Shown: positions 4,992 through 52,362 of the stretch, piece by piece | How the letters are laid out: every line of letters begins with the position of its first letter | Position numbering within the stretch: position 1 is the first letter of the stretch | IMG/VR virus record: IMGVR_UViG_3300049489_000482 | Span: 1 to 58,712 of that record | DNA length: 58,712 bases | DNA from: a virus | Lineage: Duplodnaviria > Caudoviricetes | Direction: 5' to 3' (one strand) | Program-made: the position numbers and the translations under genes | The notes under the pieces: model-generated | Told to the model about the DNA's origin: nothing | What the model saw: only the letters and a program-made list of their open reading frames with translations | Databases searched by the model: none

Positions 4992-5687
4992 TTAGAAGCT
5001 GGCGTAGAACAGCCCCGAGCCGCTGTTGTAGAGGTCGGCCACTTCGGTGTCGGACAGCGCCCGGCCCCACACGCCGAACTCGTCGAGGACTCCGTTGGAC
5101 TGGTAGCCCCACGACTCGGTTCCAATGTAGAGCACCGGGCTTGAGGAAGCGTTCAGAACACCAATCGAGCCGGAGGTGTTCTCGACGCCGTTCAGGAACA
5201 GGCTGAGTTCGCTGGCGTCCTTGTCGTAGCGGACGACGATGTGATACCAGGTGTCATTGCTGAGTGTAGTCGCGTCAGACGCCGACTGCCAGCCGCCGTC
5301 GTAGTGCCACACCGTCAGCGTGCCGCCGGTCAGGCGCAGCGCCACGCCGCCGAACGCTTCCCACGACCATATAGCCTGATCCACGCTGTTGTCGGGTGTC
5401 TTGAACCACAGGCTGACCGTGTAGCTCGCATCGTTCATCGGGAACGCCGTTGTGCCACTCTCAGTCAGGTAGCCCGGCCCGGTGCCGGCGTCCAGTGCGT
5501 TGCCGTCCTTGCCGGTGACGTAGCCGACCGTCCCGGTTTCTGTCAGGTCAACATTGGTGGTGTGCGCGTCGGTGGCGTCGTCCAGCGAGTAGTAAGCCCA
5601 CAGGGTGTCCAAGAACCCACCGCCGCCACCGCCTCCGCCCGGTTGCCCAGCGGCCAGCAGTGCTGGATTTGAAAGGCCAAATTTCAC
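4992..5687 (-). CDS. LamG/concanavalin A-like lectin-domain virion protein
   Basis: YTVSLWFK, WYHIVVRYD, LFLNG, GVLDEFGVWGRALSDTEVADLYN motifs; GTG start overlaps the upstream stop. Confidence 0.8.
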   Translation of the reverse strand: MKFGLSNPALLAAGQPGGGGGGGGFLDTLWAYYSLDDATDAHTTNVDLTETGTVGYVTGKDGNALDAGTGPGYLTESGTTAFPMNDASYTVSLWFKTPDNSVDQAIWSWEAFGGVALRLTGGTLTVWHYDGGWQSASDATTLSNDTWYHIVVRYDKDASELSLFLNGVENTSGSIGVLNASSSPVLYIGTESWGYQSNGVLDEFGVWGRALSDTEVADLYNSGSGLFYASF

Positions 5688-7465
5688 ACGTTTTCCACGT
5701 AGGTCGCCAGAACGTCGCTGTCCGTTGTCCCCAAGCACTTCAGCGCCAGCAGCGCTGTGGCTGACGCCGTCATCGCGGCCGGCGCTCCCCCGGTGTTGAA
5801 CCACCGCCATCCCGCTGGCCAAGTCAGGCTTCGCGCGGACCCGTCGTCCGTCAACACCACCAGCACGCCGCGCCCAGCGGCCTTGTTGCTGAATGTGAAC
5901 GTGGAAATGTCCTCGTCCACATCAACGGTGATCACTCCCGCCCCGGCAGCGTCGATCACCAATGTTCCGGACGCAATGGCTGCGGCATCCACGGTGTCGC
6001 GCAGTGATTCCACGATCACCTCCCCGGTGAATGTGTCGCCGTCAATGTCGGCCGGCGTGTAGCCGAGCGCGGCCTGCTTCGCGTTGAACGCGATCCAGTC
6101 GTCCTTGTCGAGATACCCGTCGTGCGTCGAGTCCGCGACGTGCATGGAGATGATGCCTGTGGTGCTGCTGTAGTCCACCGGCCCAGCCCCGGACACCGCT
6201 GCCCTGGCTCGTGCATCGGTGTAGTAGAGGTTGCCGCCCTCGGTCACGTCGTCGGTGTCGTAGTCTCCCGACGCGGCGACCACGGCTCCGGTGCGGCCAT
6301 GCACCGAAGTGACCGGGGACCATGTCGCCAAGTCGCCTTTTTTGGCCACCGTGTCGTTGTCCACGGAATACGCATAGGTGTCGTCGCGGTACAACCCGAA
6401 GTTGTAGGTCCGGCCCGGTCCACCTCCCGCTCCCGGATGCTCAACGAGCAACGTCGCCGCAGGTGCATCAAACCCTCCGTTGTCCACCGTCACCGACACC
6501 ACCACCGTTCCACCGCGTTTGCCGTGGAGGATGACGTCGTGGTATGTTGCGGCTCCGGTGACGTCCCCAGTGATTGCTGGGTCGTCGAAACTAAGCCCCG
6601 AAATCGCCGGGTCCGTCAGCGTGCAAGCCGCCAGCGTCCACCCAGTGAGCGTTCCAGCGGTGCCGCCAAACGTCGGCGAGTTGATCGTCGGCGAGTTGAT
6701 CGTCGGCGATGTCAGCGTCTTGTTTGCCAACGTTTCCACTGCACCGATGCGCGAGATCAATCCGGGGTTTGTGGACCCATCAAAGCCTCCGTTTTGCGTG
6801 CCCACGGTTTCGTTGCCGCACTGTCCATCGTCTCCTCCGGTGTCCGAGTCGAAATGCCAAAATTGATCGTCCTCATTCCAGATTTGCCACGCCGCCCGCA
6901 CAAAGCTGGTCTGAAATCCTGTGAGTCGCAGAAACCGCGCGTCACATTCATCCGCCGTGAAGTAGAGTGGATCACCAGGCTCGGGCGCGGTGCCGCCGAC
7001 GACGTGACCGTCCTGCTTCACCGTCAGCGTGGTGCAGCCGAGCGTGATGTTCCGAGCCGGCGTGTCATTGGTGATGGCGCTGATGACAACCCAGAACTGT
7101 TTTGAGTCGTTTGTTCCTAGATCGAGTTCGCTTTCTTCAAAGGTGAACGTGATCTCCACATGCTGCGCGGTTCCGGCCAACCAAGTTTCCTGCGTCGGGT
7201 TGGTGAACGGCCCGGCCACCGTCTTTGCCATCAGCGCTGCGCCGGTTTTGTCTGCCAGCGGCTTCACCTCGCACGTGATGCTGGAATACGCTGCGCCGTC
7301 CACGAGCGCCGTCTTCGCCTTGTCGCTGAACAGCCCGAGTTGAATGGACAGGTCTGTTCCCGCCCACATGTCCGGCGTCGAGCCGGTGACGGCATCCTGC
7401 CACTGGTCGGTGCTCCGCACGTTCAGCGCGGCCCGGATTAAGTCTCTGCGGATGATGTCTGGCAT
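5684..7465 (-). CDS. Tail fibre / receptor-binding-like structural protein
   Basis: NKTLTSPTIN repeats, VTSVHGRTGAV, 'EGGNLYYTDARA' and C-terminal 'RSLTWPAGWRW' are typical of fibre proteins. Confidence 0.7.
   Translation of the reverse strand: MPDIIRRDLIRAALNVRSTDQWQDAVTGSTPDMWAGTDLSIQLGLFSDKAKTALVDGAAYSSITCEVKPLADKTGAALMAKTVAGPFTNPTQETWLAGTAQHVEITFTFEESELDLGTNDSKQFWVVISAITNDTPARNITLGCTTLTVKQDGHVVGGTAPEPGDPLYFTADECDARFLRLTGFQTSFVRAAWQIWNEDDQFWHFDSDTGGDDGQCGNETVGTQNGGFDGSTNPGLISRIGAVETLANKTLTSPTINSPTINSPTFGGTAGTLTGWTLAACTLTDPAISGLSFDDPAITGDVTGAATYHDVILHGKRGGTVVVSVTVDNGGFDAPAATLLVEHPGAGGGPGRTYNFGLYRDDTYAYSVDNDTVAKKGDLATWSPVTSVHGRTGAVVAASGDYDTDDVTEGGNLYYTDARARAAVSGAGPVDYSSTTGIISMHVADSTHDGYLDKDDWIAFNAKQAALGYTPADIDGDTFTGEVIVESLRDTVDAAAIASGTLVIDAAGAGVITVDVDEDISTFTFSNKAAGRGVLVVLTDDGSARSLTWPAGWRWFNTGGAPAAMTASATALLALKCLGTTDSDVLATYVENV
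6671..6709. repeat. 15-bp tandem repeat (about 2.6 copies) encoding SPTIN
   Basis: cgtcggcgagttgat repeated. Confidence 0.85.
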
Positions 7466-7474
7466 GGTGTGTCC

Positions 7475-7897
7475 TTATGCGCTCGTTAGTTTTCCACCAA
7501 CGACAATGTAGGCGTGTGTGACGGAAGCTCCCTTGTGCTCAACAAGCACGACCGACGGAACGCCTCCGGTCATGAACTTGGATGTGGTCCCGGAGCCGGT
7601 GTCGGCGGTGGACAGAAATTCGATCCGCCCAACTCGCGGCACCGCGTCCTCGTGCTCCAGAAGAAACTGCTCCGCCTCGTAGTTGGTAGCAAACGTTCTT
7701 TTTACCTGGAACTCGAATGTGTTCCGCGTGTTCTTGCGGTCGAAAACCTCAACGCTGGCCGCACGGAATTTCTCGACGACTTGAAGAAGCCGCACGCCGT
7801 TCTGGCGCAACCCTGCGGGTGCCTCAGAAGGAACATTCCCGGCGAGCGTGAACGGCGCGCTCGGGGGGACGGTCTGCGGCGTGATCGTGATCTTCAT
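7475..7897 (-). CDS. Putative minor tail protein
   Basis: 140-aa ORF tightly packed in the tail module. Confidence 0.45.
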   Translation of the reverse strand: MKITITPQTVPPSAPFTLAGNVPSEAPAGLRQNGVRLLQVVEKFRAASVEVFDRKNTRNTFEFQVKRTFATNYEAEQFLLEHEDAVPRVGRIEFLSTADTGSGTTSKFMTGGVPSVVLVEHKGASVTHAYIVVGGKLTSA

Positions 7898-11032: not shown

Positions 11033-14000
11033 TCATTTCAGAGTGCTGCTCACCTGGTCGCTCATCGTCGGAAGAAGGTAGGCATAGACGTGCGTATTTC
11101 CGTCCGCGTCCTTCTTCACGCTCTGAACCAGCATCCGCTGGTTTGGCACCATGATCATCTCCTTCTCGCTCTTGTGGCTTGAGATGTTTCCGCCCACGTA
11201 GAGTCCACGCACTGCCGGCCCCGCCTTCATGTGGACGGTCACGTTGCCGCTCCACGCCGTGGTGATTACGGACGTCGAGATGATGGCCGGGTCCTGAAGC
11301 ACTTTCCCGGTGGAGTTCAGCAACTTTGCGTAGTCGGCCGGGTCGTTAAACGAGAACTTGCGTGCCAGCCATGTGCCCTCCGGTATCGGCTGCGCCGCCT
11401 TCTCCAATGCCAGCGCGGCGGCCACTCCGGAGCTTCCCTTTTTCTTCTGCATCAACTGCGGGTTCTGGCTCAGATAACCGCTTCCAGTGTATGCCTTGAT
11501 CTCGGCGCGTTCCGATTCTGTCAGTGCGGCGTAGGCGGCTTCGTGCTGTTTCTGAAGCTTCGAGGACGAGTTGTTGAAGTCTTTGGTGTTCTCAAATGTG
11601 CCCATGTTTCCGGCGAGCGGTTTGAACTCGCCGAGGACGTGATACCTGCCGATGTCGTTGTAGATGCCCTTCTTTGCCGAGAGCGGGAACTCTTCATGCA
11701 GCGTTTTGAAGTCGCCGACCAGATCCTTGACCGGCTTCACCGGCTCCGGCGGTGGAGGCGGGTTCTTCACCGCGTCGATGACGTCGAGCAGTTTCTGTTT
11801 GTATTCGGCGAGCTTCGGCGACTTCGTGGCGTCGATGGCATTGATGCCGGCCACGTCCCCCTTGAATGCGAGCGCGTAAGCCTTCGCCGCAGCGTCCTCG
11901 TTCAGCTTCTTCACCGCGAGGTTGCTCGTGGTAAACACCGGAGGCTTGATCGGCTCGACGGCCTTTGCGATGACCTGGTCGAGCGGCTTGCTGACGGACG
12001 GAGCGGTCGCCTTTGCCTGGCCCGCCGCCGCCTGGATAATCTTCGACGCCGAGATGGTTACGGCAGGAGCGGCCGGCGCGGCCACCGCACCTTCCGGCTT
12101 CGGGTTCGCGGCCAGATGCGCGAGCAGCGCCTCTTTGTAGGCGTGTTGCTGCTTGGCGTATGTTTGCTTGGCATCGGCCTTCGTGTAGACGGCTGAAATC
12201 TTCGCGGCATCACCGGTCAGTGCCGCCGCGTGAAGCGCGTTTACTTTGGCGTTGTGGACTGGACCATTCGCGACGCTGGCGGTCAGCGGTGGTTTCGGAA
12301 TCGAATCAACCCACTTTGCGTGCGCCTTCTCCGCTGCCTCCTTGGATGCCACGGCTGCGGCGCCGTGCTTCTGCTCCATCTCGGTGAGTATCATAGCGTA
12401 CACCTGAGCAGCGGCCTTCTGGTACGGGTTCGGCGACTTGGTCTTGCTCAGGTCGTAGGCGTGCTTCTTCAGTTCATCGATGTTCCCGGTGTCAGCGGCC
12501 TCTTCCATCTTGGCGATCTTGTTGACCGCCCAGTGCGCCGCGCTGTTGTGCGCCGGCCACTCGGTGACGTCCAGCGATTGGATGTGCTTCAGCGGCTTCT
12601 CCACCTTTCCAAGCGCCTTCTTCTCCGCCGCCGCCGTGGTGGCGATGGATGCGGCCACGGAATCCGGTTCCGTTGCGGTGACCGGCTCGGGCTTCGTGGC
12701 AAGCCCGGCCTTCTCCAGAATCGCGTCGCGCCGCTGCTTCAGCACCGACGCCATCGCCGCAGCCTTGTCGCCGACGAGGAACTGCTGCGTCAGGTTGTCG
12801 ATCTGCGCGTCGGTGACGGTTTGCAGCGCCTGCGCCGACTCCTTCAGCGCTTCTGGCGTCATGTCCTTGAATACGTGCGCGGCCTGCGGGTTCAGTTTCT
12901 GGTCGCGCATCGTGTCCCATTCCTTCGGGTCCGCGCCGAACTCCTTCTTGCCTCCCTGCGCCCGGTATTCGAGAGAACCGCCTGTGTCCACCGTGGTGAT
13001 TTTCTTGGTGTCGTTGTTCCAGACCTGGTTGTCGTAGCTGGCGCCGATGGCGTCCCAGTTCCCAAGCCACGCATGGACCGCGAACGCCTTTTGAGCGGCC
13101 TTGCGCTCACCTTCGCTGTTCTGGTCAAACGGCGCTTTGTTCAGCCACGGCGTCGCGGTCATTACCTGCGATTTCGCCGAGTTGAATGCGACGCGATAAT
13201 CCGGCACGGACTGGCCGGCCGCCTTGTAGAGATTTGCCGCCAGCACTTCCTGGACGGCCTGAGCGCCACCACCCTTCGGCTCCTTCACGTACCACTTCGA
13301 TCCGTCCGGAGCCTGCATCACGCTCGCCGGGTTGCTGCCCTGCTGCCCGCCGATGACCTTCCAGCCAGTGGTGTTTACCGGCACGTCAGGTTCGGAGCCG
13401 CCCGCGGGCGGGTTCGACGCGCTGTCACCGGCGCTGCCCTGCCCGACGTGGCACTCCTTGTCGCCAGCGATCCACGAGTCGCCACATGGTTGACCGCCCT
13501 CGTTGGCGGCGTGTTTGGTGGAGCGAAACTCATGGCCCGGAAGGTCGCCATTCGCCGCCTCACGCTCACTGATCCCGAGCATCTCGTTGACGAGGTTCTC
13601 CGCGCGTCCGCTCTCGCTGAACGGTTGCGTAGTGTCCCCGTGCGCCAGCCACGCCTTGAGCGTGCCCACGTCCGTGCGCGTCTGCGCGCTGATGCGGGTG
13701 TCCGCGCTGCCGTCGCTGAAACTGCGCCGGTATGCTACCAGCGCCTGGGTCGGCGCGCTGAACCCGAGCATGACCTTGTGCTCGTCAAACTCGCCCGTGT
13801 CCGGGTCCGCCTGGTCGATGACGAGGACGTGCGGTGAGTTCTCGTCCGGCCCGACGTAGCAGTCCACATGGTCGCCGTCGGCGCTGCGGGCGGATTCGTT
13901 GGCGACTGGTTTGCTGTGGTCTTTTCCGTGTGCCGCCCTGTCAATGGCCGGCAGCAGATCATGCCGCCCGGTAGCGTCTGCAAGCACCTGCCGGTCGCGG

Positions 14001-15697
14001 CTGCGGTTCAGCATCGTCATTGCCTCCTCGACAGGCACCAGCCTGGTCGCCGCCGTCTCGTCCGGCTTGAACCCGCGCGGGTCGCCGCCTGAGCGTGCCC
14101 CGTGGTAGTAGCGCGTCACCGACGTGTCGCCCCGGTAGTCGCCGATGTGCTTGCCGATGACCGCCGTGAGTCCCGTCTCCTCGTGCAGTTCCTTGTGCGC
14201 GGTCTGTTGCAGCGTCAGCCCGTCCTCGACGGTGCCCTTCGGCAGCGTGAACTTGTAGCCTCCAAACTTCCACTTCGGCTGCACCAGCCAGACTCGACCG
14301 TCCTTCTCCTGCAGCACCATGCCTGCGCTGACGTGCTGCCCCTTCGGCGGTTTCGGCGGTGCCGGTTCCTTGGCGCTGTCCTTGATGGCCGCGAAGTCCG
14401 GCGCCTGGACTGGTGCGGTGCTGATGCCGTGCAGCGTCTTGGGCGCGTCGGCGCCGGGATGAAACAGGCGATGTTTCGGGTTCGCCGGCTTGCTCAGGTC
14501 GTCCGGCTCCGCCTTCTTCGATGTCACCATTCCTGGCAGTGAGTATTGCCCGTGCTCCTTGCCGCCCGTGGGCGGGTTGCCTCCGCCGACGTGGCATTCC
14601 TTGTCCCCGGCGATCCATCCCTCGCCACACGGAATGCCTCCCTCGTTCGCCGCCTCACGTTCGCGCGGGTGCAGTATGTAGCCGTAGTCCACCGGCATTT
14701 TGACGCTCCACTCCGTTCCGTCCGGTGCCGAGCCGCGCCGGATGCCGCCCGCTGGCGTCTCGATGCGGATGTCCAGTCCCTGAAACTTCAGGCGCTCCTT
14801 TCGGTAGTTCCCGGCCGCAGCCTGTGCCGGCGTCGGCTCGGTGATCTCGTTCGCCGCGTGCGTGAGCACGCCGTCTTTGAACGTGTAGCCGTCCCCCAAG
14901 TCTTCGAGCAGCGCCTCGCGGAGTTCCGGTGTCAGCGCCTGGACGCTGCTCTCCACGTCCTCCTCAAAGTTGCGCGACTGCGGTTGGACCTTTTCGTCCT
15001 TCGTGATCACGCCCAGTTCCTCCGCCTCTTCTCGGGTAATGTCCCGGATGTCCATGCCGCTCTGGTAGTCAAACGGCGGATAAGGCAGCCCGAACGCCGA
15101 GATGGCTTCCCAGATCGGGTCGTCCTTGCGCGCGATCATGCGGCCTTCCGCGTAGTCGCCACGGCCAGGCGTCAGTTCGCCGCCCGCGTCCTGCCACCGG
15201 GTTGGCCAGTCGCGCCACTCCTCCCGATCCTCAGCCCTGACGAGTTCCTGGCACGGCCATGCGTCCAGCACCGCCTCGTTCTGCCCCTGCGCCCAGCGCC
15301 CGAAGCCCTGCGCCAGTTCCGTGTTCGTCTTCAGCACAAGGTTAAGCCTCTGGTCGCTCGACAGGTCGGTGATGCTTCCGCGCTGCGCCGCGTCCGGCTG
15401 GTAGCCGATGGAGTTGAGTTCGTCCTTCAACCGAAGGCGGGCGGTGGCGTAGTCGAGACCCTCGGTGACCGGCTTGCCGTCGCGCAGCACGGTGTGCGGG
15501 TGCAGGATTTCGTCGATGGTGTCCTGAATGGTCTGGACGTAGCGCGCGTTCGTGGTGCGTGCGCTGAACCGCGCAACTTCGAGGATTGACGGGTTGATCT
15601 TGGCCAGTTCCGCCGATGACAAATCGGTCGGCAGCAGCGCCTTGACCGCCGTGGACTTCAGGGCTTCGGCGAATGGCAGAGGATTTCCGAACAGCAT
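11033..15697 (-). CDS. MuF (gp30/SPP1 gp7-like) head protein fused to split InPase, NUDIX, kinase-like and VIP2-type ADP-ribosyltransferase domains
   Basis: MuF (RLNLVLKTN...PYPPFDYQSGM); InPase (AGNYRK..IETPAG..YGYI / DGDHVD..FDEHKVMLG); Nudix box PKGTVEDGLTLQQTAHKELHEETGL; kinase-like (GSNP, YVK, WLGNWD, VDTGGSL); ART R..STS..EKE. Confidence 0.85.
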   Translation of the reverse strand: MLFGNPLPFAEALKSTAVKALLPTDLSSAELAKINPSILEVARFSARTTNARYVQTIQDTIDEILHPHTVLRDGKPVTEGLDYATARLRLKDELNSIGYQPDAAQRGSITDLSSDQRLNLVLKTNTELAQGFGRWAQGQNEAVLDAWPCQELVRAEDREEWRDWPTRWQDAGGELTPGRGDYAEGRMIARKDDPIWEAISAFGLPYPPFDYQSGMDIRDITREEAEELGVITKDEKVQPQSRNFEEDVESSVQALTPELREALLEDLGDGYTFKDGVLTHAANEITEPTPAQAAAGNYRKERLKFQGLDIRIETPAGGIRRGSAPDGTEWSVKMPVDYGYILHPREREAANEGGIPCGEGWIAGDKECHVGGGNPPTGGKEHGQYSLPGMVTSKKAEPDDLSKPANPKHRLFHPGADAPKTLHGISTAPVQAPDFAAIKDSAKEPAPPKPPKGQHVSAGMVLQEKDGRVWLVQPKWKFGGYKFTLPKGTVEDGLTLQQTAHKELHEETGLTAVIGKHIGDYRGDTSVTRYYHGARSGGDPRGFKPDETAATRLVPVEEAMTMLNRSRDRQVLADATGRHDLLPAIDRAAHGKDHSKPVANESARSADGDHVDCYVGPDENSPHVLVIDQADPDTGEFDEHKVMLGFSAPTQALVAYRRSFSDGSADTRISAQTRTDVGTLKAWLAHGDTTQPFSESGRAENLVNEMLGISEREAANGDLPGHEFRSTKHAANEGGQPCGDSWIAGDKECHVGQGSAGDSASNPPAGGSEPDVPVNTTGWKVIGGQQGSNPASVMQAPDGSKWYVKEPKGGGAQAVQEVLAANLYKAAGQSVPDYRVAFNSAKSQVMTATPWLNKAPFDQNSEGERKAAQKAFAVHAWLGNWDAIGASYDNQVWNNDTKKITTVDTGGSLEYRAQGGKKEFGADPKEWDTMRDQKLNPQAAHVFKDMTPEALKESAQALQTVTDAQIDNLTQQFLVGDKAAAMASVLKQRRDAILEKAGLATKPEPVTATEPDSVAASIATTAAAEKKALGKVEKPLKHIQSLDVTEWPAHNSAAHWAVNKIAKMEEAADTGNIDELKKHAYDLSKTKSPNPYQKAAAQVYAMILTEMEQKHGAAAVASKEAAEKAHAKWVDSIPKPPLTASVANGPVHNAKVNALHAAALTGDAAKISAVYTKADAKQTYAKQQHAYKEALLAHLAANPKPEGAVAAPAAPAVTISASKIIQAAAGQAKATAPSVSKPLDQVIAKAVEPIKPPVFTTSNLAVKKLNEDAAAKAYALAFKGDVAGINAIDATKSPKLAEYKQKLLDVIDAVKNPPPPPEPVKPVKDLVGDFKTLHEEFPLSAKKGIYNDIGRYHVLGEFKPLAGNMGTFENTKDFNNSSSKLQKQHEAAYAALTESERAEIKAYTGSGYLSQNPQLMQKKKGSSGVAAALALEKAAQPIPEGTWLARKFSFNDPADYAKLLNSTGKVLQDPAIISTSVITTAWSGNVTVHMKAGPAVRGLYVGGNISSHKSEKEMIMVPNQRMLVQSVKKDADGNTHVYAYLLPTMSDQVSSTLK

Positions 15698-15763: not shown

Positions 15764-17038
15764 TCAGAAACTATCCAAATTCCAGCCTGCGTTTCGGCGT
15801 TCGATCTTTGATCCGGGAAGCGCCAGAAACGCAGCCAGAGAAATGGTACGCCGACGGGTTCCTTTGAAGTTCAGAATCGTCAGTGAGTTGCCGTTGATGA
15901 TGTCTCGGGCCGCGATGCCGCGCTCGTCAAGATCGTCGTGCGTCGGAAAGCTGTTCGACACAGCAGCCGTGGCGCTGAATGTCTTCACGCACACCGGAGC
16001 CGGGGCCGGCACGAACTTCGCGATCTGCGCTTCAACCTTAGCGGCGTCGCGCTCAAGCACGACGACGCCGCTGAACTGAGGCACGCGGCCCGAGAAACCC
16101 GTGAGGGCTTCGGCGAACTCGATGCCGTTCTTGGTCATCCATCCGTGCGCCTTCTTTTCGGTCTTACCGCCGAGCGACTTCGCCAATTTTGAAACTTCCG
16201 AATAGTTGAAGTGCCGAAGCCCGGCGCGAACACCGTGAATGATGTCCACATTTCCGTAAGGGTTCTTCGCCTCGCCGACTGTCGCCACCGGCGCGTCGGT
16301 CGCAACTGCGGCAACGCGGGCCGCGTCGCGGGCAATGCGCTGTTCCGCGGCGAGGCGCTGGCCGATCTCGAACGCCTCTTGCTCGGCGGGCAGCCGGCAG
16401 ATTTCCGACGAGCGGCTCAGGCCGTCCGCGATGTTGTCTTCGCCCGCGATTTGATTGAAGGTGACGAGCATCGAATTCTCGGCGGCGATCTTCTTCGCGA
16501 GCCACAAGTACTTCGCGCCGTCGTAACCGAATTTGGTGCTCGCCTCGAAGCTGCCGATCCGGTCGTTCCGAACTTCGATGCGCGACAGTTTCATTTCCTT
16601 GGCCGTCTCGACGGCTTTCAGGACGCCGAAGCACTCGGCAGCGAATTGATCGTAATCACCGTTCGCGGTGTGGCAGTTCCCGTTGACTGCCGTGCAGCGG
16701 GCCACTTCAGTGCCGGCCTCGTCGAGCACTATTACGGCGGCTTTCGCGCCAACGGCATTCGAGCGCCGGGCCGCGTCGCAATAGACAAGGTGCAGCGGCT
16801 GGCCGGCGACGGCGGTTTCAATCGCCGCTTGGGCGGCGAGTTCGTTTTGCTCGCGCCGGGCCTCGCGCACGGCGGCATAGTCGATGCCGCACACTTTTAG
16901 GAGCGCGGCTTTGTAGCGCGGGAAGGCGCTGCGGTTGTCGAACCCGAGTTCGATTCCGATCTGGCGAAGCTCGGCTGATGTTCCAGCGCAGAGGATGCGC
17001 TCTTTGTTGTCGGCTACAATTTCGGCGATGGTCTTCAT
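15764..17038 (-). CDS. RNase H-fold domain protein
   Basis: VYCDAA, AAECFGV, IEVRND and NIADGLSR match the RNase HI D-E-D-D pattern. Confidence 0.65.
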   Translation of the reverse strand: MKTIAEIVADNKERILCAGTSAELRQIGIELGFDNRSAFPRYKAALLKVCGIDYAAVREARREQNELAAQAAIETAVAGQPLHLVYCDAARRSNAVGAKAAVIVLDEAGTEVARCTAVNGNCHTANGDYDQFAAECFGVLKAVETAKEMKLSRIEVRNDRIGSFEASTKFGYDGAKYLWLAKKIAAENSMLVTFNQIAGEDNIADGLSRSSEICRLPAEQEAFEIGQRLAAEQRIARDAARVAAVATDAPVATVGEAKNPYGNVDIIHGVRAGLRHFNYSEVSKLAKSLGGKTEKKAHGWMTKNGIEFAEALTGFSGRVPQFSGVVVLERDAAKVEAQIAKFVPAPAPVCVKTFSATAAVSNSFPTHDDLDERGIAARDIINGNSLTILNFKGTRRRTISLAAFLALPGSKIERRNAGWNLDSF

Positions 17039-17114
17039 TATTTTGTCGTTTTTCGCTCCGGGCACCATGCCCGTTGCTTGGGAGCACATTACCAGGCCGC
17101 CGTTGGTTGGCGAT

Positions 17115-17308: not shown

Positions 17309-18193
17309 TCACCATGCCAGCCCGCGCTTCACTGCGTTCGGGCCGCCATCGGCCTCGGCATCCTTGGCCGCTGCCAGCCAGCGTGGAATGTTAAACGAAC
17401 CATCGGCGTTCCGTGTCACCTGAGATTTTGGAAGGAACACAGACGTGTCGCCCTGTAACGAGGAATGGGCTGCGTTGTACTCGACCCTGAGGTGCCATGC
17501 TTTATCCGTTTCGCCTGCGAAGGTGTAGCTTCCGGGCTGCGGGGTAAACATGCGTGACTGAAGTTTCTGGTCGGTTAACCACTTCGGCACCGTGATTTTC
17601 TCGCCTTCCATTTTGACCTGAGACTTCGGCATCCACATGTCCTCAAAGTCGGGATGCGAATAGAGGATGGCCTTCTCGGTTTCTCGAATCACCTTACCAC
17701 CGCTGAACGTCGAACTGCCGTCCGCATTACGCTTCCAACCAAGTGTCTCGCCAGCAGCTTCCTTTTGTGCGTCCTGAGCGGCGGCTTGCTTCTGCGATTC
17801 CAAGGTGGACTTACGCTCGGCGATCTTGTCCTCCAGAATTTGGCGGCCACGTTCTGTAACCGTCAGTTTGCCAGCTTCATCCAAAACCTGACCACGCTTC
17901 GGCAGCCAGTGCTCTCCGTGTTCTGGGTGCGCGATCTTCATCGCCTTTTCCGACTCGCCGGTTTTCTTCCAGCCTTCGCTCGACGCCTTGCCGCCTTTGC
18001 CTGCGGACCAGCCAATGCGGCATTCCTTGTTGGCGCTGATGAACGAGTCGCCGCAGGGTTGCCCGCCTTCGTTCGCGAAATCCTTCTCCCATTTCTTTCG
18101 AGCCGCAAGAGTGTGCGTCTGGTTCGCCACCAAAGTCACTCCGTCGTCCTCGACTAGGATGTGGCCTCCGTTGCGTTGAATCCACTTTGGCAT
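17309..18193 (-). CDS. Probable head cargo protein: FANE site, Cys tag and three ETEKA..WxPKSQ repeats
   Basis: WEKDFANEGGQPCGDSFISANKEC, then three copies of a small repeat domain. Confidence 0.7.
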   Translation of the reverse strand: MPKWIQRNGGHILVEDDGVTLVANQTHTLAARKKWEKDFANEGGQPCGDSFISANKECRIGWSAGKGGKASSEGWKKTGESEKAMKIAHPEHGEHWLPKRGQVLDEAGKLTVTERGRQILEDKIAERKSTLESQKQAAAQDAQKEAAGETLGWKRNADGSSTFSGGKVIRETEKAILYSHPDFEDMWMPKSQVKMEGEKITVPKWLTDQKLQSRMFTPQPGSYTFAGETDKAWHLRVEYNAAHSSLQGDTSVFLPKSQVTRNADGSFNIPRWLAAAKDAEADGGPNAVKRGLAW

Positions 18194-18756: not shown

Positions 18757-19761
18757 TCAGGAGATCGTCGCCTTCTGAATCCCGAGCGTGCTCGTGACGA
18801 TGATGTTCGAGTAGTGCTCGACGGTGATGTCGATCAGCTTCGCGTTGATCTGCTGCTCGTACACCCGGAACGGCGTTCCGCCCGTGGTCGGACTGACGAA
18901 CCGCTTGATGTTCGAGGGGTCCTCCGCCGTGGCGTTCGACTCCGCCATGAAGAGCAGGACGTAATCGCCCAGCACCTTGCTCTTGGTGGCCGCTGCGCTC
19001 TGGTATCGCTCCTTGCTCACGCGCACCTCGTCAAGGCCGAGGTATCCGGCCACTTCCGCCTCGGTCATGCCGGCGCTGGCGAACCCGCCCGCCGTGTTCT
19101 GAGCGCGATGCGAAATGCGGCGCTTGTTCCACGCCACCGTGCCGTAAAGGCCGCGGTTCGGGTTGATGCCGGCCGCGTCCTGAAACGCGATGACCAACGC
19201 GGCAATGTCTTGGTCTGGGTCCTTGCCCGCGTCCGTGTTCCACGTCTTGGCGGTGTTCGCTCCCGCCGCGACCAGCAGGGCGATGGCCCGGCGCAGTTCG
19301 TTGCGGTAGAGCCGGCGCATGAGACGTCCGGTGTAGAGTTCGCGCCAGTTCGGGTTGCCCTCGACGTTGTCCAGGTCTACCCGGATGGTGAGACCTTTGT
19401 TCAGCGTCTTGGCCGACTCCTTTTCGCTGGTAAACTCCACGCGCTTGAAGTCTGCGCCGATGGCGCGGACGTCATCCGTTTCGGAGAGGAACTCCTCCGC
19501 GTTCGACGCCTTGCCGAACTCGAAGCGGCGAGAGGTCTGAACCTTCGGCGCGACGAATTCGAGCGTGGCCTCGATGTTGTTCGGGTCCTTCCAGCCGATG
19601 GCGTAGGTCGTCAGCGGCTCCGAGAAGTTCGCTTCGACAAAGCGGCTCTCGTTCGCGAAGTACATCGAGCCGGGCGCGTTGTTGGCGCCGAGGTCGTTCC
19701 CCGCGATCATGTCGGCAATCGCTCCCGCGACTGCCGCACCTGCGATGAGTTTCGATTTCAT
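18757..19761 (-). CDS. Major capsid protein
   Basis: 334 aa; follows protease and cement genes; followed by a strong terminator; leader ends in FANE. Confidence 0.75.
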   Translation of the reverse strand: MKSKLIAGAAVAGAIADMIAGNDLGANNAPGSMYFANESRFVEANFSEPLTTYAIGWKDPNNIEATLEFVAPKVQTSRRFEFGKASNAEEFLSETDDVRAIGADFKRVEFTSEKESAKTLNKGLTIRVDLDNVEGNPNWRELYTGRLMRRLYRNELRRAIALLVAAGANTAKTWNTDAGKDPDQDIAALVIAFQDAAGINPNRGLYGTVAWNKRRISHRAQNTAGGFASAGMTEAEVAGYLGLDEVRVSKERYQSAAATKSKVLGDYVLLFMAESNATAEDPSNIKRFVSPTTGGTPFRVYEQQINAKLIDITVEHYSNIIVTSTLGIQKATIS

Positions 19762-20649: not shown

Positions 20650-22083
20650 TCAACGGCCAGTTGTCACCTGCGCCTCGGGCTTCTGCATCTCGGCGAACAG
20701 CGCCGGCTTCTCAGCCTTGATCTGCGCGAAGCAGTAGTCGTAGTCGCACTGCTTCCCATCCTTGCGGTTTGCGTCCATGCGCTCGTTGACGGCGTCGATG
20801 ACCTGGCTCATGCGGCTGCGCGTGTCGCTGTTCCGCTTCCCGAGGTCGCCCGCGCTGATGCTGCTCTGCGTCTTGAGCTTCTTCGGCAGCTTGGTGAAGC
20901 GGTCCAGCGTGTCGCTGAACGCGGCCTCGTTGGCGAAGTCCTTCTCCCACACCGGACGCTCCGCCGCCGTGATGCGGCCCGCCTGGATGGCGTCGTTCAG
21001 GACGAGCTCGATCCGCGCCTTGCGCTCGTTGGCAAAGTCCATCTCCAGCTTCGCGGCCTTGGCGGCTCCGGCCTCGGCAGCAGCCAGCTTGGTTTCGAGC
21101 TCGGTCTTCTCGTTGGCGAACTGCTTCTCCCGCTCCGCGAGCTTCGCCTCGGCCTCAGTGCGCGCGGTGCGCGACGCCGTGAACTCGTTGATGAACGCCT
21201 GCGTCGCGTTGCTGTCGGTGACGGTGATGCCTGCCGCGGCAAGCGTCGTGATGAGCAGCGTCTCGTTGGCGATCAGCTTGCCCTTGTCCGCCTCGCACGC
21301 GCATCCAGCCTTCTTGGCGGTTTCGAGTTCGTTGGCCATCTCGGCGTGCTTCTTCTCGCACTCGTTGACCATCGTCTCCTCGTCGAGTTCGTCGGTGTCG
21401 GCCTTGCCGAGAAATTTCTTGATGTAGTCGGTGAGTTTTTTCATGCCGTTGGTTTTGGTTTCTGCCGTTTCGTTGACGAACGTCACAGCGTCCGCCTCTG
21501 TCTGTTCCTCGTTGGCGAAGGTGACGGGTGCCACCGGAATCTGAGGCTCGTTCGTGAAGCCGACGCTCTTGATCGTGAACGGGCGCCACACCGCGCCCTC
21601 TTTCCGCATTCGCCAATTAACCGAGTGACCGTGGAACGCCTTCTTGGCGATCAGCGCTTTTCCGTCGTCGTTCCACTCCACGTTGGCAAACAGCCCGTGC
21701 GCCTTGCAGCCCTTGCCCGCCCGGCACGCCGCGCAGTTCGCGTCCTCGCGCACGTCCAGTTTTCGGATGCGTCCCTTCGCCGCGGTGTCGGTGTAGCGAT
21801 CCTTCATCGCCGGGAAGTCCGGATGCCCGACGTACCATGGCAGCCCGAGTGCGCGCTGCGGCAGCCCGGCCATGCTGCTGAACTCGTTCACGATGGTGTG
21901 CGCGTCCTCTGCGCGGAAGCGCTGCATTCCGCTGGCATTGTCCCAGTCCCCGAACGGAGCCAACTGCGCCCAGCTTTCGTCCGGGACCTTGGCGGAGGTG
22001 TTGACGAATGTCACACCATCGCGCCGGACCATGGCTCGCGCGGTGGTGATCATTCGTTGGAGGATTGGCTTGATGGCCTTCAC
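20650..22083 (-). CDS. Mu gpI-like prohead protease plus scaffold
   Basis: 'YVGHPD', 'AKGRIRKLDVRE..GLFANVEW', 'SVGFTNEP', then a coiled-coil scaffold. Confidence 0.8.
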   Translation of the reverse strand: MKAIKPILQRMITTARAMVRRDGVTFVNTSAKVPDESWAQLAPFGDWDNASGMQRFRAEDAHTIVNEFSSMAGLPQRALGLPWYVGHPDFPAMKDRYTDTAAKGRIRKLDVREDANCAACRAGKGCKAHGLFANVEWNDDGKALIAKKAFHGHSVNWRMRKEGAVWRPFTIKSVGFTNEPQIPVAPVTFANEEQTEADAVTFVNETAETKTNGMKKLTDYIKKFLGKADTDELDEETMVNECEKKHAEMANELETAKKAGCACEADKGKLIANETLLITTLAAAGITVTDSNATQAFINEFTASRTARTEAEAKLAEREKQFANEKTELETKLAAAEAGAAKAAKLEMDFANERKARIELVLNDAIQAGRITAAERPVWEKDFANEAAFSDTLDRFTKLPKKLKTQSSISAGDLGKRNSDTRSRMSQVIDAVNERMDANRKDGKQCDYDYCFAQIKAEKPALFAEMQKPEAQVTTGR

Positions 22084-22144: not shown

Positions 22145-23779
22145 TCAGTTCCTGGTGGAAGTCCTGAAATGCTGCGGTGCGGCGTTGCGTTTCGGAGGCT
22201 GCCTCGTGCTTCCGCGCGGCCGCACGGACGCGTGCCGGCGCACGGTGGCCTGCGTCAGCCCGTTGAAAAATCCGGCGCTCATCGCGTCGGCGATCGCCCG
22301 CTCGCCTTCCGGGTTCTCGTTGATCGCGTGCAGGATTGCAGGCAGTTGCTCGCGCAGGTTGTGGAGCGCCACACGAAACGCTTCCTCGTTCGGCATGTCG
22401 ATGACCGCCTGCATCCGCTCGCGCAGCGGCTCCAGCACATGCGCCTGAGCGGAAGCGGCCCGGCGCATCGACGCAGCCAGCAGCCCGTGCTGCTCCCGCG
22501 CTTCGTTGGCAAACGACATGGCCGGCAGACGGTTGCCGTCTTCCATGCCCGGCTGCGGTGGTGCCTGCGCGGCCTCCAGCACCTCGTCTCCGTCCTCTGC
22601 GATCTTGCGACCGTACCGCTCCGCCGTTTCCTTCTTCGCGAGTTTCACGCCGTGCTTCGTGAGGAACTCGTCCACCTGGAGGTCGCTGGCGACGTTGCGC
22701 GGTTCCGGGATGACGATGCGGACATATGCGGCCGGCGCGGTCCCGTCGCCGAAATGGTAGGCGATTACCTTTCGATCCACCTGTTCGTTCAGTGTCTCGG
22801 AGATGAGCCTGGCATCCTGGCTCTTGAGCGAGTGTTCCTCCTTGCCCTGCAACGATGCGCCCTGCCCCTCGCCGGAGCCTGCGCTGATGGTGGACAGGTC
22901 CGCGCCGCGCCACAGCGCCGCAAGCGCACGATCCATGCGCTCGACAAGCGGTTGGAATGGCAGCGTACCCGTGGCCGCAAAGTCGATCTTCGAGATCTCG
23001 TCGTCCATCGACGTCACGCACGAGAAGTCCGCTGCGACCGCCTGGACAGCCGCCTCGACGGCTTTCCATCCGTCGCTGTCCACCGGGTGCTTCGTCTTGC
23101 CGTGAACGCCTGGCATCCCGTGCTTTTCGCAGTACATCACCCAATCCTTGAGCGGCAGGAGCTTGTACATGTAGGCGACCGCGCACGCCTCCATGAGTCC
23201 GTCGCCGCATGTGATCAGCCAGTCGTCGTCGAGCGGTTCGCCTTCAAGCGCGAAGTCGTCCTTCAGGAAGCGGAGGGTTCCGGTCCGGTTCTCAAAAAAC
23301 CAAAGCGGCACGAAGTTGAACGTGGCGGTGAGGTTGTCCTTCGTCGGACGCCAGATGATTTCGTGCGCGGCATACTGCTTCGCCAGCGCGTCCATCATTT
23401 GCTCGACCAGCAGACTAAACCCGCGGTTTTGGTTCCGGTCCACGGCGTGCGTGGCGCGCAGGTTCGAGTAGAAGTATTCGAGTTTGGCCGCGTGTTCCTC
23501 CGCGACGTTCGGCGCCGCCTTCGGGTCCTTTATGATGGACCAGTCGTACGCGGTCAGTGCGGCGGTGCGCTTCGGGATGACGCACTTCAGCACGTCGTCG
23601 CGCCGCTGGATGGCGTCCATCGTCATCGCAAAGCGGCGCAGCATGCCGGCGTTGAACTCCTCGATCTGGCGGCTCAGGTTGTCCGCCGTCAAATCGCGAA
23701 TCGGGTTGAACCGGGTCTGCTTCCAGTAACGGACGCGTTCCGGTGTGATGATGCTTACGAACTTGCCGCTGTCAGCCAT
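22145..23779 (-). CDS. Portal protein (Mu gp29/DUF935-like)
   Basis: 'MDALAKQYAAHEIIW', 'DWVMYCEKHGMP', 'DARLISETLNEQV'. Confidence 0.8.
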   Translation of the reverse strand: MADSGKFVSIITPERVRYWKQTRFNPIRDLTADNLSRQIEEFNAGMLRRFAMTMDAIQRRDDVLKCVIPKRTAALTAYDWSIIKDPKAAPNVAEEHAAKLEYFYSNLRATHAVDRNQNRGFSLLVEQMMDALAKQYAAHEIIWRPTKDNLTATFNFVPLWFFENRTGTLRFLKDDFALEGEPLDDDWLITCGDGLMEACAVAYMYKLLPLKDWVMYCEKHGMPGVHGKTKHPVDSDGWKAVEAAVQAVAADFSCVTSMDDEISKIDFAATGTLPFQPLVERMDRALAALWRGADLSTISAGSGEGQGASLQGKEEHSLKSQDARLISETLNEQVDRKVIAYHFGDGTAPAAYVRIVIPEPRNVASDLQVDEFLTKHGVKLAKKETAERYGRKIAEDGDEVLEAAQAPPQPGMEDGNRLPAMSFANEAREQHGLLAASMRRAASAQAHVLEPLRERMQAVIDMPNEEAFRVALHNLREQLPAILHAINENPEGERAIADAMSAGFFNGLTQATVRRHASVRPRGSTRQPPKRNAAPQHFRTSTRN

Positions 23780-23811
23780 GCACGCGGGCTTAAGCCCGAC
23801 GCGCCCGAATG

Positions 23812-24063
23812 TCAAAGGCGAACAGCAGTGACGTTCACGGAGGCCGGCTTATCGCATTGCTGTGGCGGTGGCGGGTCTGGCAACCGTGTTTGGTTTCTGA
23901 TTCTGGGTATTTCGTGAAGGCGCACGAGCAGGCTCGGGTTCAGGCGGACGAGATCGCCGGGGCAGATGCACCAATCACAACCGTCGCATCCATGCCTGCG
24001 CGCCCACTGCGCGTAAAGTTTTACGCGGAGCTCCTTGGCGGTTTCTCGTGTGAACGGCTTCAT
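23812..24063 (-). CDS. Hypothetical protein
   Basis: Start overlaps the upstream stop; contains CxxCxxC. Confidence 0.4.
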   Translation of the reverse strand: MKPFTRETAKELRVKLYAQWARRHGCDGCDWCICPGDLVRLNPSLLVRLHEIPRIRNQTRLPDPPPPQQCDKPASVNVTAVRL

Positions 24064-26936: not shown

Positions 26937-26984
26937 TCGTTTTTCGTTGCCGCCATACAACCCGCCCACGGGCGGGTATGCAAG

Positions 26985-28439
26985 TCACAAAAGCCCGCGG
27001 CCTCGACGCGCCCGCATGTCGATAGGCGTCCGGTTCGGGTCCTTGCTCTTCACAAGCCGCACCGCGCTTGGTGACGTGTCCGCCAGTGCGTTCAGTCCGC
27101 CGCTGAACCCGTCCACCTGGTCGTCGTCCAGCCCATCCGGGAACGCCTCAAGCTCCGCCAAAAACGCCTCGTTCCACGATCCGCGCAGCAGGAACACGTT
27201 GCCCGCCTGCGCCTGTGCGGAAGCCGGCTTCGCGCGCACCAGCTTGCTCTTGGTCGCCGGGAACGCCTTGATGTTGAACTGCGCCAGTTGCCGGATGTGA
27301 TAGTTCGCCTCCGCCTTGCCGGCCTGTCCGGGATCCTGCTCGATGCCGATGGCCACGTCCACGCCGTCTTGGCTCGCCGTGTTCTTGATGCACTGCTCGA
27401 CCGTTCCGCTGGTTCCCTGGATGCGCTCGACGTGTTCAACGAAGAACATTCCACGATCGTCCCTGGTGATCTTCACGCCGACCGTCCAGTCCGGTTTCGG
27501 GTTGTCCGGTGACGGCTCCGTGGCGGCCCGGTCCCAGTAGCGGATGGTGGATGTGCGCTCGCGCGGGACGGCATCGACGATCTTGAACCACGAGCGCCGG
27601 AACACGTTTCCGGTGCTTGCGCGTATCTTCCAGTTGCCGGCCAGCAGCCGCATCCGGTCCACGTAGGAGAGCGCTTCGAGGTTGGCGATGTATCCGGGGT
27701 CCGTCTCGAGCAGGATGCGGTTGTCGTACACGCTCGCCGGGATGAATGTCACCGACTTGGGTTTCGAGCGCGGATGCCTCGCCACCAGTTCGGCCTCGGT
27801 GTCCGCCCAGATCAGTTCGTCGTTGACGCGGATGAACCATCGAAACACGCCGGCACGTTCCTTGATCGGGTATCCGTATCGCGGGTTCGGCTTGCCGTCG
27901 ATCGTCTCGTTTTGGTCGATCCACCACGCGATGAAGTCCGCCACCCAACTGTCCGGGTCCGGGTTCGTCGTCGCCCGGATGTATGGCCGCACGCCGCACA
28001 TGGAGCGGTTGCGGCTCATCATGTAGAAGAACTGCTTCGCGGAGAAGTGCGTGAGTTCGTCGTAGCCCATGTAGCAAACCTGCGCTCCTTGCCACGCGTA
28101 GACTTCCTTTTCGTCCTCGAGGTGCGAGAACCGGATTTGCGTCCCGGACGGGAAGACGTGCGTCAGCCGGTGGCGAATCGGGCGCGCTCCGAGCGGGATG
28201 TAGAGCTTTTCCGCCTCGTCCCACAATCCGCCGGGGTTCGTGATCTGGACGGCGTTGCGCCGGAACAGAGCGGCGTTGAATCCGCGCGTGTCTTTGTGCC
28301 GCAGCGGTTCGAGCAGCAGGCCAAACGACTTTCCGCCTCCGGCGCTCCCACCGTAGATGGCAATGTCCGCCGCCGTAGCAAGGAACCGCTCTTGCGGACC
28401 TGGTTGCGGAGCGATGCGTTGTTCTGGCCGGTTGCTCAC
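26985..28439 (-). CDS. terL: Terminase large subunit
   Basis: Walker A GGSAGGGKS, Walker B YDELTHF, ATTNP, nuclease motifs WDRA and DDQVD. Confidence 0.9.
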   Translation of the reverse strand: MSNRPEQRIAPQPGPQERFLATAADIAIYGGSAGGGKSFGLLLEPLRHKDTRGFNAALFRRNAVQITNPGGLWDEAEKLYIPLGARPIRHRLTHVFPSGTQIRFSHLEDEKEVYAWQGAQVCYMGYDELTHFSAKQFFYMMSRNRSMCGVRPYIRATTNPDPDSWVADFIAWWIDQNETIDGKPNPRYGYPIKERAGVFRWFIRVNDELIWADTEAELVARHPRSKPKSVTFIPASVYDNRILLETDPGYIANLEALSYVDRMRLLAGNWKIRASTGNVFRRSWFKIVDAVPRERTSTIRYWDRAATEPSPDNPKPDWTVGVKITRDDRGMFFVEHVERIQGTSGTVEQCIKNTASQDGVDVAIGIEQDPGQAGKAEANYHIRQLAQFNIKAFPATKSKLVRAKPASAQAQAGNVFLLRGSWNEAFLAELEAFPDGLDDDQVDGFSGGLNALADTSPSAVRLVKSKDPNRTPIDMRARRGRGLL

Positions 28440-29050: not shown

Positions 29051-29071
29051 GCCTCACGTGGCGATGCTGCC

Positions 29072-29431: not shown

Positions 29432-29502
29432 GGTGTCCTTCTGTTGGTGCGTTGCGGTTGTCCGGATTCCGGCGCATGTCACGCCCTTGTCCGGGAGAGC
29501 GG

Positions 29503-52178: not shown

Positions 52179-52362
52179 GATGGTTTGCGTTCTTTGTTTT
52201 CTTTGTTTTCTCATTCGCCACCCTGCATCAGTGCCGGGTGACGGTTGCACCATGTCGGTTGCATCGGCGGTATGCAACGAAAATCAAGCGCCGCTCCATG
52301 AGGGAGCGGCGCTCCGCGACTCGACGCGCACGACTTCGGAGCGTGCGCGGTGCAACGCGCAA

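Follow-up and report, generated by a model that had tools for sequence, protein, structure and literature searches.

The IMG/VR virus record IMGVR_UViG_3300049489_000482 (Duplodnaviria; Caudoviricetes) was analyzed over its full length of 58,712 nucleotides (nt), hereafter called the window. An open reading frame (ORF) on its minus strand encodes a protein of 1554 amino acids (aa) in which a type-I-like inorganic pyrophosphatase domain of the family InPase is interrupted by a NUDIX hydrolase. The interruption was confirmed; it falls in the short loop that links the YGYI strand to DGDxxD, a metal-binding motif. The inserted cassette is 259 residues long and comprises a predicted cleavage motif, a Cys-x10-Cys-His tag, a linker, the NUDIX hydrolase and a second such motif. 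We propose, with a probability of roughly 0.55, that the gene product is an interleaved polyprotein which a prohead protease would resolve into a free NUDIX hydrolase and a two-chain pyrophosphatase. Cleavage, association of the two chains, enzyme activity, delivery to the host and the route of rearrangement are what we infer from the evidence given below.

The InPase family PF18823 (135 profile positions, cut-off 26.8 bits) matched the whole protein in two stretches with 133.2 bits. When the pieces were scanned separately, aa 291-342 corresponded to profile positions 2-53 (62.6 bits) and aa 604-684 to positions 56-134 (80.9 bits), both above the cut-off. The two matches are collinear and complementary on one profile, with the NUDIX domain between them. 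A preliminary description of the region had placed a break after YGYI and a resumption at ADGDHVD and had expected two partial profile matches, which is what was obtained. From the end of YGYI at aa 341 to the start of DGDHVD at aa 607 there are 265 intervening residues, close to the earlier estimate of about 255. The same loop comprised 6 residues in 197 of 202 other proteins, 7 in two and 11 in one, and among InPase domains encoded in the loci compared it had 6 residues in 90 of 91 and 7 in one, in agreement with the earlier remark that the two motifs are normally a few residues apart. With 265 residues instead of the usual 6, the 1554-aa protein falls outside the contiguous short-loop form of PF18823. 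An apparent 93-residue loop in the protein P0211 was an artefact of the search pattern, the true reading being 6 residues.

The insert begins with LHPREREAANE, followed by the tag GGIPCGEGWIAGDKECHVGGG, about 80 low-complexity residues and the NUDIX domain, and ends with GKDHSKPVANE and SARS; on the C side the chain reads KPVANE and then SARSADGDHVD. The order AANE, tag, NUDIX, VANE given in the preliminary description could be read in the translated flanks. An alignment with E. coli pyrophosphatase, a weak match (E-value 0.14) over plain YGYI...DGDxVD, put the insertion at the equivalent of residues 58-64, directly before the metal-binding aspartates. Inteins start with Cys, Ser or Thr, end in His-Asn followed by Cys, Ser or Thr, and carry a Hint domain. 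An intein was rejected here, as the insert starts with LHPRE and ends with KPVANESARS before A606, lacking a terminal His-Asn, and no Hint or intein family was matched in the 1554-aa protein (Pfam, E-values up to 1).

The span first described, 13620-14860, corresponds to aa 280-693 of the ORF. The modules of the protein are arranged as N-terminal domain, InPase N-half, tag, NUDIX, InPase C-half, tag, kinase-like domain and ADP-ribosyltransferase (ART):

11033..15697, minus strand: whole gene, predicted virion polyvalent protein of 1554 aa (ORF and translation, Pfam and PHROG matches, blastp of segments against relatives).
14846..15697, minus strand: N-terminal domain, aa 1-284, ending in HAANE (ANE site 1, aa 282-284, 14846-14854).
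14672..14827, minus strand: InPase N-half, aa 291-342 (AGNY ... DYGYI), PF18823 positions 2-53, 62.6 bits.
14642..14650, minus strand: ANE site 2, aa 350-352 (REREAANE then GG), predicted cleavage site on the N side of the insert.
14579..14641, minus strand: tag copy 1, aa 353-373 (GGIPCGEGWIAGDKECHVGGG), in direct repeat with 13443-13510.
13979..14338, minus strand: NUDIX domain, aa 454-573, after the low-complexity linker aa 374-453 (PF00293, 62.5 bits).
13895..13903, minus strand: ANE site 3, aa 599-601 (KPVANE then SARS), predicted cleavage site on the C side of the insert.
13646..13888, minus strand: InPase C-half, aa 604-684 (ADGDHVD ... FDEHK ... W), PF18823 positions 56-134, 80.9 bits.
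13499..13588, minus strand: boundary after InPase, with LVNE (aa 703-706), EREAAN, 16 aa and HAANE (ANE site 4, aa 731-733).
13436..13498, minus strand: tag copy 2, aa 734-754 (GGQPCGDSWIAGDKECHVGQG), heading the predicted kinase-ART fragment.
12668..13417, minus strand: kinase-like domain, aa ~761-1010 (HipA_2, E-value 0.02-0.048, below the cut-off).
11093..11548, minus strand: ART domain, aa 1384-1535 (PF03496, 23.7-25.8 bits against a cut-off of 23.4; phrog_3895).

All four ANE tripeptides and the LVNE of this protein are located at module borders, and the four ANE sites bracket every module of aa 282-733. The motif was surveyed in 45 minus-strand ORFs of the window, selected by a longest-ORF rule plus the ORFs of the head region. 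A total of 15 ANE were detected, four in the polyvalent protein, nine in four other head proteins and two elsewhere. This amounts to 13 in the 3215 aa of the five head proteins, vs 2 in the 12655 aa of the other 40 ORFs (Fisher p 6.6e-8). In the head set no other tripeptide was as over-represented as ANE (13 seen, 1.26 expected); when the polyvalent protein was left out, 9 were seen vs 0.78 expected. Within the 1554-aa protein the four ANE compare with 0.48 in shuffled sequences, and four were reached in a fraction of 0.00145 of 20000 shuffles.

With a G+C content of about 62% and almost every gene on the minus strand, the window looks like a phage contig. Its head module runs, from upstream to downstream, through the terminase, portal, protease/scaffold, a 277-aa protein with a cement/scaffold-like match, capsid, P0121, a 441-aa protein and the 1554-aa gene:

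26985..28439, minus strand: large terminase (phrog_979, E-value 3.7e-161).
22145..23815, minus strand: Mu-type portal (PF06074, E-value 9e-56), with SFANE then A at aa 434-438.
20650..22083, minus strand: putative prohead protease fused to scaffold (P0122, 477 aa; phrog_328 'head maturation protease', E-value 2.8e-12).
18757..19761, minus strand: major capsid protein (P0123; phrog_1005), with YFANE then S at aa 34-38.
17309..18193, minus strand: P0121, a head-module protein of 294 aa, with KDFANE (aa 37-42) then GGQPCGDSFISANKECRIG, the third junction of ANE and tag.

The capsid ANE occupies aa 36-38, and that of the portal aa 436-438 in its C-terminal part. The C-terminal, helical scaffold half of P0122 contains six ANE plus VNE and INE sites. 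In three contigs (L145, L146 and L147) whose capsid protein is about 50% identical, ANE was found at the homologous N-terminal position of the capsid, as LANE then G and/or Y(L/M)ANE then (S/A). Each of their protease/scaffold proteins has 3-5 ANE, and the L146 portal has FANE at aa 494, again in the C-terminal part. Across the 4 protease/scaffold homologues aligned, two ANE columns show no variation, in surroundings that are poorly conserved, and phrog_328 was matched by all 4 aligned P0122 homologues. The prohead protease of phage SPN3US is described as cutting after AXE with Val or Ala preferred at P4 and Ser at P1', and its substrates as including capsid, portal and ejection proteins, with sites repeated inside propeptides (PMC10052503). 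Because ANE is enriched in head proteins, stands at the capsid N-terminus and at module borders, is conserved in relatives and has this precedent, it most likely marks prohead-protease cleavage sites, as far as sequence comparison can tell. The capsid and protease proteins had no tblastn match at E-value 1e-5 in 50,697 phage records, and a literature search on the cleavage specificity of Mu-type head proteases found nothing useful.

With InPase, NUDIX, kinase-like and ART domains in one chain, on the same strand as the head genes and downstream of them, the 1554-aa protein belongs to the polyvalent proteins as Iyer et al. 2017 use the term (PMC5512222). The gene product would be packaged in the virion of this uncultured phage. 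The recognition motif of the prohead protease would be the tetrapeptide (hydrophobic or Ala)-Ala-Asn-Glu, and head maturation would cut after E284, E352, E601, and E706 and/or E733. The predicted products are the N-terminal domain (aa 1-284), an InPase N-chain of 68 residues and 7.6 kDa (aa 285-352), tag, linker and NUDIX (aa 353-601), an InPase C-chain of about 105 residues and 11.6 kDa (aa 602-706), a short peptide, and the tag, kinase-like domain and ART (aa 734-1554). New N-termini are predicted at I285, G353, S602, M707 and G734. In our proposal the InPase would already be folded when the cuts are made, so that its two chains would remain associated as a nicked enzyme after the release of NUDIX, and the nested order would be tolerated because processing makes the order of modules in the precursor irrelevant. 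Both sites flanking the insert suggest flexible, accessible segments in an AlphaFold model of aa 285-706, where site 2 has a predicted local distance difference test (pLDDT) of 54, with values below 50 from model residue 68 on, and site 3 lies within residues 308-322, also below 50. The preliminary description had offered release of NUDIX from a two-chain pyrophosphatase as one possibility. The first part gained from the concentration of ANE in head proteins and its conservation in relatives, while for association of the chains the prediction given below offers weak support.

Both halves of InPase look functional from their conservation and model confidence. Among 33 columns conserved in at least 85% of 75 contiguous homologues, 31 are identical here (16 of 17 in the N-half, 15 of 16 in the C-half), the exceptions being N to T at aa 314 and G to S at aa 605. 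The residues kept include E313, R320, Y338, D607, D609, D612, D638, E639 and K641, and all acidic residues are kept. The model of aa 285-706 (422 residues) had a mean pLDDT of 76.5 and a predicted template modelling score of 0.47, with pLDDT of 91-94 in the N-half and 93-97 in the C-half. A two-chain prediction of aa 285-352 with aa 602-706 scored 0.57, vs 0.02 for the best of 3 controls, and was rated weak support: of 80 solved complexes 58 attained the mark applied, as did 2 of 110 mismatched pairs, and 7 of the 80 and both mismatches stood at 0.60 or under. The two-chain runs, for which their own alignments were used, agreed in at least 88% of contacts with a partner pLDDT of at least 70. 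Since family I pyrophosphatases are solved, the pass may reflect likeness rather than binding.

A second break at the same loop was found in an unrelated viral contig (L008, 5950-10406), where InPase is encoded in two ORFs. The first, of 83 aa, covers profile positions 1-61 and the second, of 1182 aa, starts with positions 55-134; both halves are well conserved. An ORF for an HNH endonuclease lies between them (6110-7054; PF01844, 22.1 bits against a cut-off of 21.4), and no intron or other RNA family was matched in 5500-7500 (Rfam, E-values up to 0.1). If the L008 copy is functional, the loop tolerates a break of the chain. The most conserved stretch of InPase may be a target for mobile endonucleases. 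A gene left in pieces by insertion of a homing endonuclease is known from the split ribonucleotide reductase of phage Aeh1. L008 resembles genes of this kind, with InPase as two polypeptides that need assembly and the endonuclease gene between them. Unlike L008, the chain in the window is continuous, and a break would be made by a protease and not at the level of the gene. A sequence search of PDB further identified an InPase domain in the portal chain of Pseudomonas phage Pa193 (residues 635-762); the structural model of that portal covers residues 94-528 only (PMC11456595).

The origin of the nested order was examined in relatives. A HMMER search with aa 280-700 over 1.84 billion representatives gave 11351 matches, of which the best 150 were listed, and 17 of these 150, chosen for at least 3 stretches or for top NUDIX scores, were compared with ten segments of the protein. 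A nested InPase was found in none of the 17, nor was one seen among the best 150 of the 11351. The InPase halves were adjacent in 10 of them, and NUDIX was the next recognised segment downstream in 8 of those 10 (P0126, P0128, P0131, P0134, P0135, P0141, P0187 and P0222), the gaps between InPase and NUDIX ranging from 50 to about 1020 aa. Further downstream, P0126, P0128, P0134 and P0187 have the kinase-like domain, the middle region and ART in the order of the window's protein, and the shared modules are 28-57% identical. Unlike here, their InPase is contiguous and NUDIX follows it, with borders reading PLANR, ALANA, VVANV and ENS; P0126 also has the Cys tag, as does the 1554-aa protein. The kinase-like domain is 26-51% identical to the same domain in P0125-P0135, P0141 and P0187. 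The N-terminal domain matched no Pfam family over aa 1-284. By blastp of segments it is homologous to the N-terminal parts of P0131, P0134 and P0140, where it precedes InPase too, and it gave a faint match to phrog_220 'minor head protein and DNA pilot' (E-value 0.0012); it is likely the part for incorporation into the head.

Other collections gave the same picture. None of 464 phage records covered at least 80% of the query and none had the nested form; both Pfam families occurred together only in the window's own protein among the 120 listed of 167 matches of a word search; and no nested copy was present in 144 loci. No nested InPase was found in a literature search or in the main text of PMC5512222, supplements aside, and the word 'inserted' has 0 occurrences in that main text.

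The tandem arrangement in relatives makes the nesting look like a lineage-specific rearrangement. The ancestral order was most likely InPase, NUDIX, (tag), kinase and ART, judging from the sequences compared, and the nested order is most likely derived and so far unique. A string of EREAAN, tag and NPPxGG follows each InPase half (two copies; DNA 78-94% identical). Tag copy 1 and 13443-13510 form a direct repeat with 78% identity over 68 nt, and the 17-mer coding for EREAAN is repeated at 14646-14662 and 13551-13567 with 94% identity. A rearrangement from the tandem order would have involved duplication of this EREAAN-tag junction. As a conjecture, three steps could have led to the present gene: a tandem duplication of InPase-C, junction and NUDIX, a loss of the first InPase-C, and a recombination between the repeated junctions.

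Border motifs also occur between InPase and NUDIX in four relatives (PLANR, ALANA, PLANA and VVANV), indicating that the two enzymes are probably released separately there too. Across the domain borders of P0128, P0131, P0134 and P0187, motifs of the type hydrophobic-A/V-N-x recur (the same four, with KNR and ENS). These may be cleavage motifs of their own phages, the residue after Asn varying by lineage.

A different reading of the same architecture would make InPase a zymogen, which we consider doubtful. The enzyme would be plugged by the 259 residues and switched on as a two-chain enzyme only inside the capsid, once the maturation protease had cut the complete, tagged NUDIX out of the active-site loop. 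A plug beside the metal-binding aspartates would keep InPase inactive in the producing cell, and the active form would be ready for injection.

An unlikely explanation is a permanent domain insertion, a stable nested enzyme of two domains in which the ANE sites of this protein are unused and the active sites stand side by side, for example with the pyrophosphatase removing the pyrophosphate released by NUDIX. In its favor, both halves and NUDIX are intact and confidently modelled in one chain, relatives and the literature (PMC5512222) repeatedly show InPase paired with NUDIX, and a similar, regulatory insert is described for family II pyrophosphatases (10.1101/2020.04.07.028951). However, all four ANE and LVNE lie exactly at module borders, and ANE is otherwise concentrated in proteins expected to be processed. 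The boundary motifs between InPase and NUDIX in the four relatives point to separation of the domains there. The linker of about 80 low-confidence residues between InPase-N and NUDIX suggests no fixed geometry. Coupling of the two activities by nesting, the other possibility raised in the preliminary description, found no support, as InPase is contiguous in 10 relatives with NUDIX next in 8. Given this tandem order and the boundary motifs of four relatives, physical nesting is unneeded for any link between InPase and NUDIX.

It is quite unlikely that the pyrophosphatase is dead, that is, that a recent rearrangement broke InPase and left the halves as remnants, spacers or propeptides, with only NUDIX, the kinase-like domain and ART of importance. 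The architecture is a singleton in the collections searched, the break adjoins the metal-binding aspartates according to the weak E. coli match, and small fragments usually leave proheads (PMC10052503). However, the 31 of 33 conserved columns kept reveal no decay in either half, and L008 provides a second, independent break at the same loop with both halves conserved. If the tag copies on either side of the rearranged part arose with the rearrangement, their identity of only 78% at the DNA level speaks against a very recent event.

A chimera assembled at the repeated tag is highly improbable: the repeat is present, the architecture is a singleton and no independent sample bridged the junctions (sequencing runs X2 and X3 hold NUDIX-internal pieces), but at 78% over 68 nt the copies of the repeat differ too much for an assembler to confuse them, no repeat lies at the right-hand junction (VANE-SARS-ADGD), the reading frame is open through both junctions, and a Logan contig of 41,494 nt (depth 34.8, run X1) spans 13400-15000 with 0 differences. 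X2 and X3 contain 8-9% of the sampled words, together with fragments of contiguous InPase from other organisms, and bridge neither junction.

Several points weigh against the interleaved polyprotein. Cleavage is predicted from motif statistics, and two ANE lie outside the head module (aa 194 of 49631-51565 and aa 2-4 of 51631-52221, both on the minus strand), so the motif is not exclusive to head proteins. The protease in P0122 was identified by a PHROG profile only; P0122 matched no Pfam or NCBIfam family, and its AlphaFold model, built on 4 sequences, averaged a pLDDT of 52.7 and stayed below 50 in the N-terminal domain. Contact between the InPase halves, as expected of one OB-fold domain, is suggested by the confidence values and the weakly rated complex prediction, and Foldseek and VIA-align searches with the 422-residue model listed NUDIX matches only. 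Like other propeptides, the 68-residue N-chain might leave the prohead. As a singleton, the nested form could be a recent, even inactivating, rearrangement which has not yet decayed. Finally X1, the sole run bridging the junctions, may be the source sample, in which case its contig represents a second assembler on the same data.

The NUDIX domain itself (aa 454-573) matched PF00293 with 62.5 bits against a cut-off of 21.1, and no NCBIfam subfamily reached its cut-off. In VIA-align searches the modelled domain matched diadenosine polyphosphatase 9cxx_B (Z 17.6, root mean square deviation 1.9, 120 aligned residues) and Ap6A hydrolase 1vc8_A (Z 17.1). The diphosphoinositol polyphosphate phosphohydrolases 7aui_A and 7tn4_A gave Z 15.7-16.1, and Foldseek against pdb gave NUDIX matches including 3i7u (E-value 8.5e-10). 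The model is thus closest to diadenosine/polyphosphate hydrolases, a shared fold which does not fix the substrate. The consensus of the Nudix box is GX5EX7REUXEEXGU. The box here reads G-TVEDG-L-TLQQTAH-K-E-L-H-E-E-T-G-L, in which the EE pair and G agree with the consensus, while L replaces the first E and K replaces R; the variant KE..EETGL is common to the relatives P0009, P0014, P0016 and P0051. Short contigs from X2 and X3, which belong to a different study, match NUDIX-internal stretches (13917-14284) with 97-99% identity, and by this sequence match a close relative of the NUDIX module exists elsewhere.

Repeated NUDIX modules were observed in other relatives. P0125 (1905 aa) has five tandem copies after the kinase-like domain and P0132 (941 aa) has two, while P0127 (3130 aa) has alternating kinase-like and NUDIX units in the order kinase-NUDIX-kinase-NUDIX-kinase. 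Within the window's protein, the InPase stretch DGTEWSVKMPVDYGYI (14690-14740) resembles the NUDIX stretch KDGRVWLVQPKWKFGGYKF (14210-14260) at the protein level, probably by chance similarity of two beta-hairpins. In the alignments A2, A3 and A4, MAFFT placed the DGxxWxVxMPxxYGYI stretch of homologues onto the NUDIX KDGRVWLVQPKWKFGGYKF; these alignments were discarded as misaligned, and the fold model was built on alignment A1 only (24 rows).

The tag of about 21 residues, GGxPCG(D/E)x(W/F)Ixxx(K)xC(H/R)xG, was detected in three copies in two head proteins, each directly after ANE:

14579-14641, minus strand: tag copy 1.
13436-13498, minus strand: tag copy 2.
17996-18058, minus strand: third copy, in P0121.

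Similar tags occur in six relatives (P0126, P0129, P0130, P0133, P0140 and P0155) after other short motifs, including ENA, VEA, DHA and ENS, then G. No family matched the tag, and no homologue of 161-515 aa was found for P0121. The position directly after ANE or another short motif fits a mark of the new N-terminus of a processed fragment. The tag may be a small N-terminal cap stabilised by metal or disulfide, which is a guess.

Comparison with described systems separates the familiar parts of this arrangement from the unusual ones. The main text of Iyer et al. 2017 describes InPase as 'fused to or next to' NUDIX, predicts packaging and injection, notes that the polyvalent InPase family is without the extra hairpin of the cellular enzymes, and proposes that InPase clears pyrophosphate or acts on a nucleotide-like substrate (PMC5512222). 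Processing of polyvalent proteins into units is also proposed there and credited to an embedded metallopeptidase domain (PMC5512222). The 1554-aa protein is like these polyvalent proteins in being a multi-effector protein among head genes, with the same InPase family and its association with NUDIX. It is unlike them in that NUDIX lies inside InPase and the motif points to the prohead protease; no peptidase domain was detected within it in a Pfam scan. The predicted cleavage resembles the processing described for SPN3US, phiKZ and T4, where cuts are made after Glu in A-X-E with a hydrophobic residue or Ala at P4, in capsid, portal, scaffold-like and internal proteins with repeated propeptide sites (PMC10052503). 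In those phages, however, N-terminal propeptides are removed, while here dissection of a polyprotein and excision of one enzyme from another are predicted. The protease here matches phrog_328 beside a Mu-type portal, and it is compared with gp245 at the level of the cleavage motif.

A large foreign module nested inside the catalytic region of a pyrophosphatase is also described for CBS-pyrophosphatases, family II enzymes with a CBS-CBS-DRTGG insert (10.1101/2020.04.07.028951). They differ in family and fold, and the module inserted in them is a permanent, regulatory one that has no catalytic role and is not described as flanked by cleavage sites. Penicillin G acylase and proinsulin, with its C-peptide, fold as precursors from which an internal segment is excised while two chains stay together. 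In contrast to both, the excised 'spacer' here would be a complete tagged enzyme, and the likeness is one of analogy without homology.

Other genes near the head module were also recorded. The 441-aa protein directly upstream (15764-17089, minus strand) has a match to the Rad4 beta-hairpin domain 3 (PF10405, E-value 6e-9, 36.6 bits against a cut-off of 27); eukaryotic lesion-recognition modules of nucleotide excision repair have been traced to bacterial mobile elements (PMC6222260). At 24497-30939 (minus strand), two DNA methyltransferase genes, one with a fused ParB-like N-terminal domain, lie around the terminase gene, and a separate ParB-like gene is present. These methyltransferase and ParB-like genes may serve anti-restriction.

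The recurrent pairing of InPase with NUDIX, already noted by Iyer et al. 2017 (PMC5512222), fits a shared role. From their domain assignments, the InPase, NUDIX, kinase-like and ART modules fit a kit of injected enzymes acting on nucleotide-derived or nicotinamide adenine dinucleotide (NAD)-derived molecules. A role against nucleotide-signal defences, put forward in the preliminary description, is speculation.

Polyvalent proteins are regarded as the earliest phage proteins at work once a cell has been infected, and accounts of their division into working units are, to our knowledge, mostly conjecture. What this locus presents would be a legible code for processing, in which one tetrapeptide is common to capsid, portal, scaffold and effector precursors. 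It would also be a stringent natural test of that code, because the release of InPase from NUDIX would require cuts at both flanking sites. Confirmation would make it the first case known to us of one enzyme excised from within another during capsid maturation, and the mature effectors of uncultured phages could then be predicted from sequence by a simple rule. The recurrent InPase, NUDIX, kinase-like and ART set points to a conserved kit of effectors, possibly with nucleotide-derived signals or the metabolism of NAD and ADP-ribose as targets. If the proposal is true, processing would free polyvalent proteins from keeping each domain collinear, making interleaved polyproteins possible.

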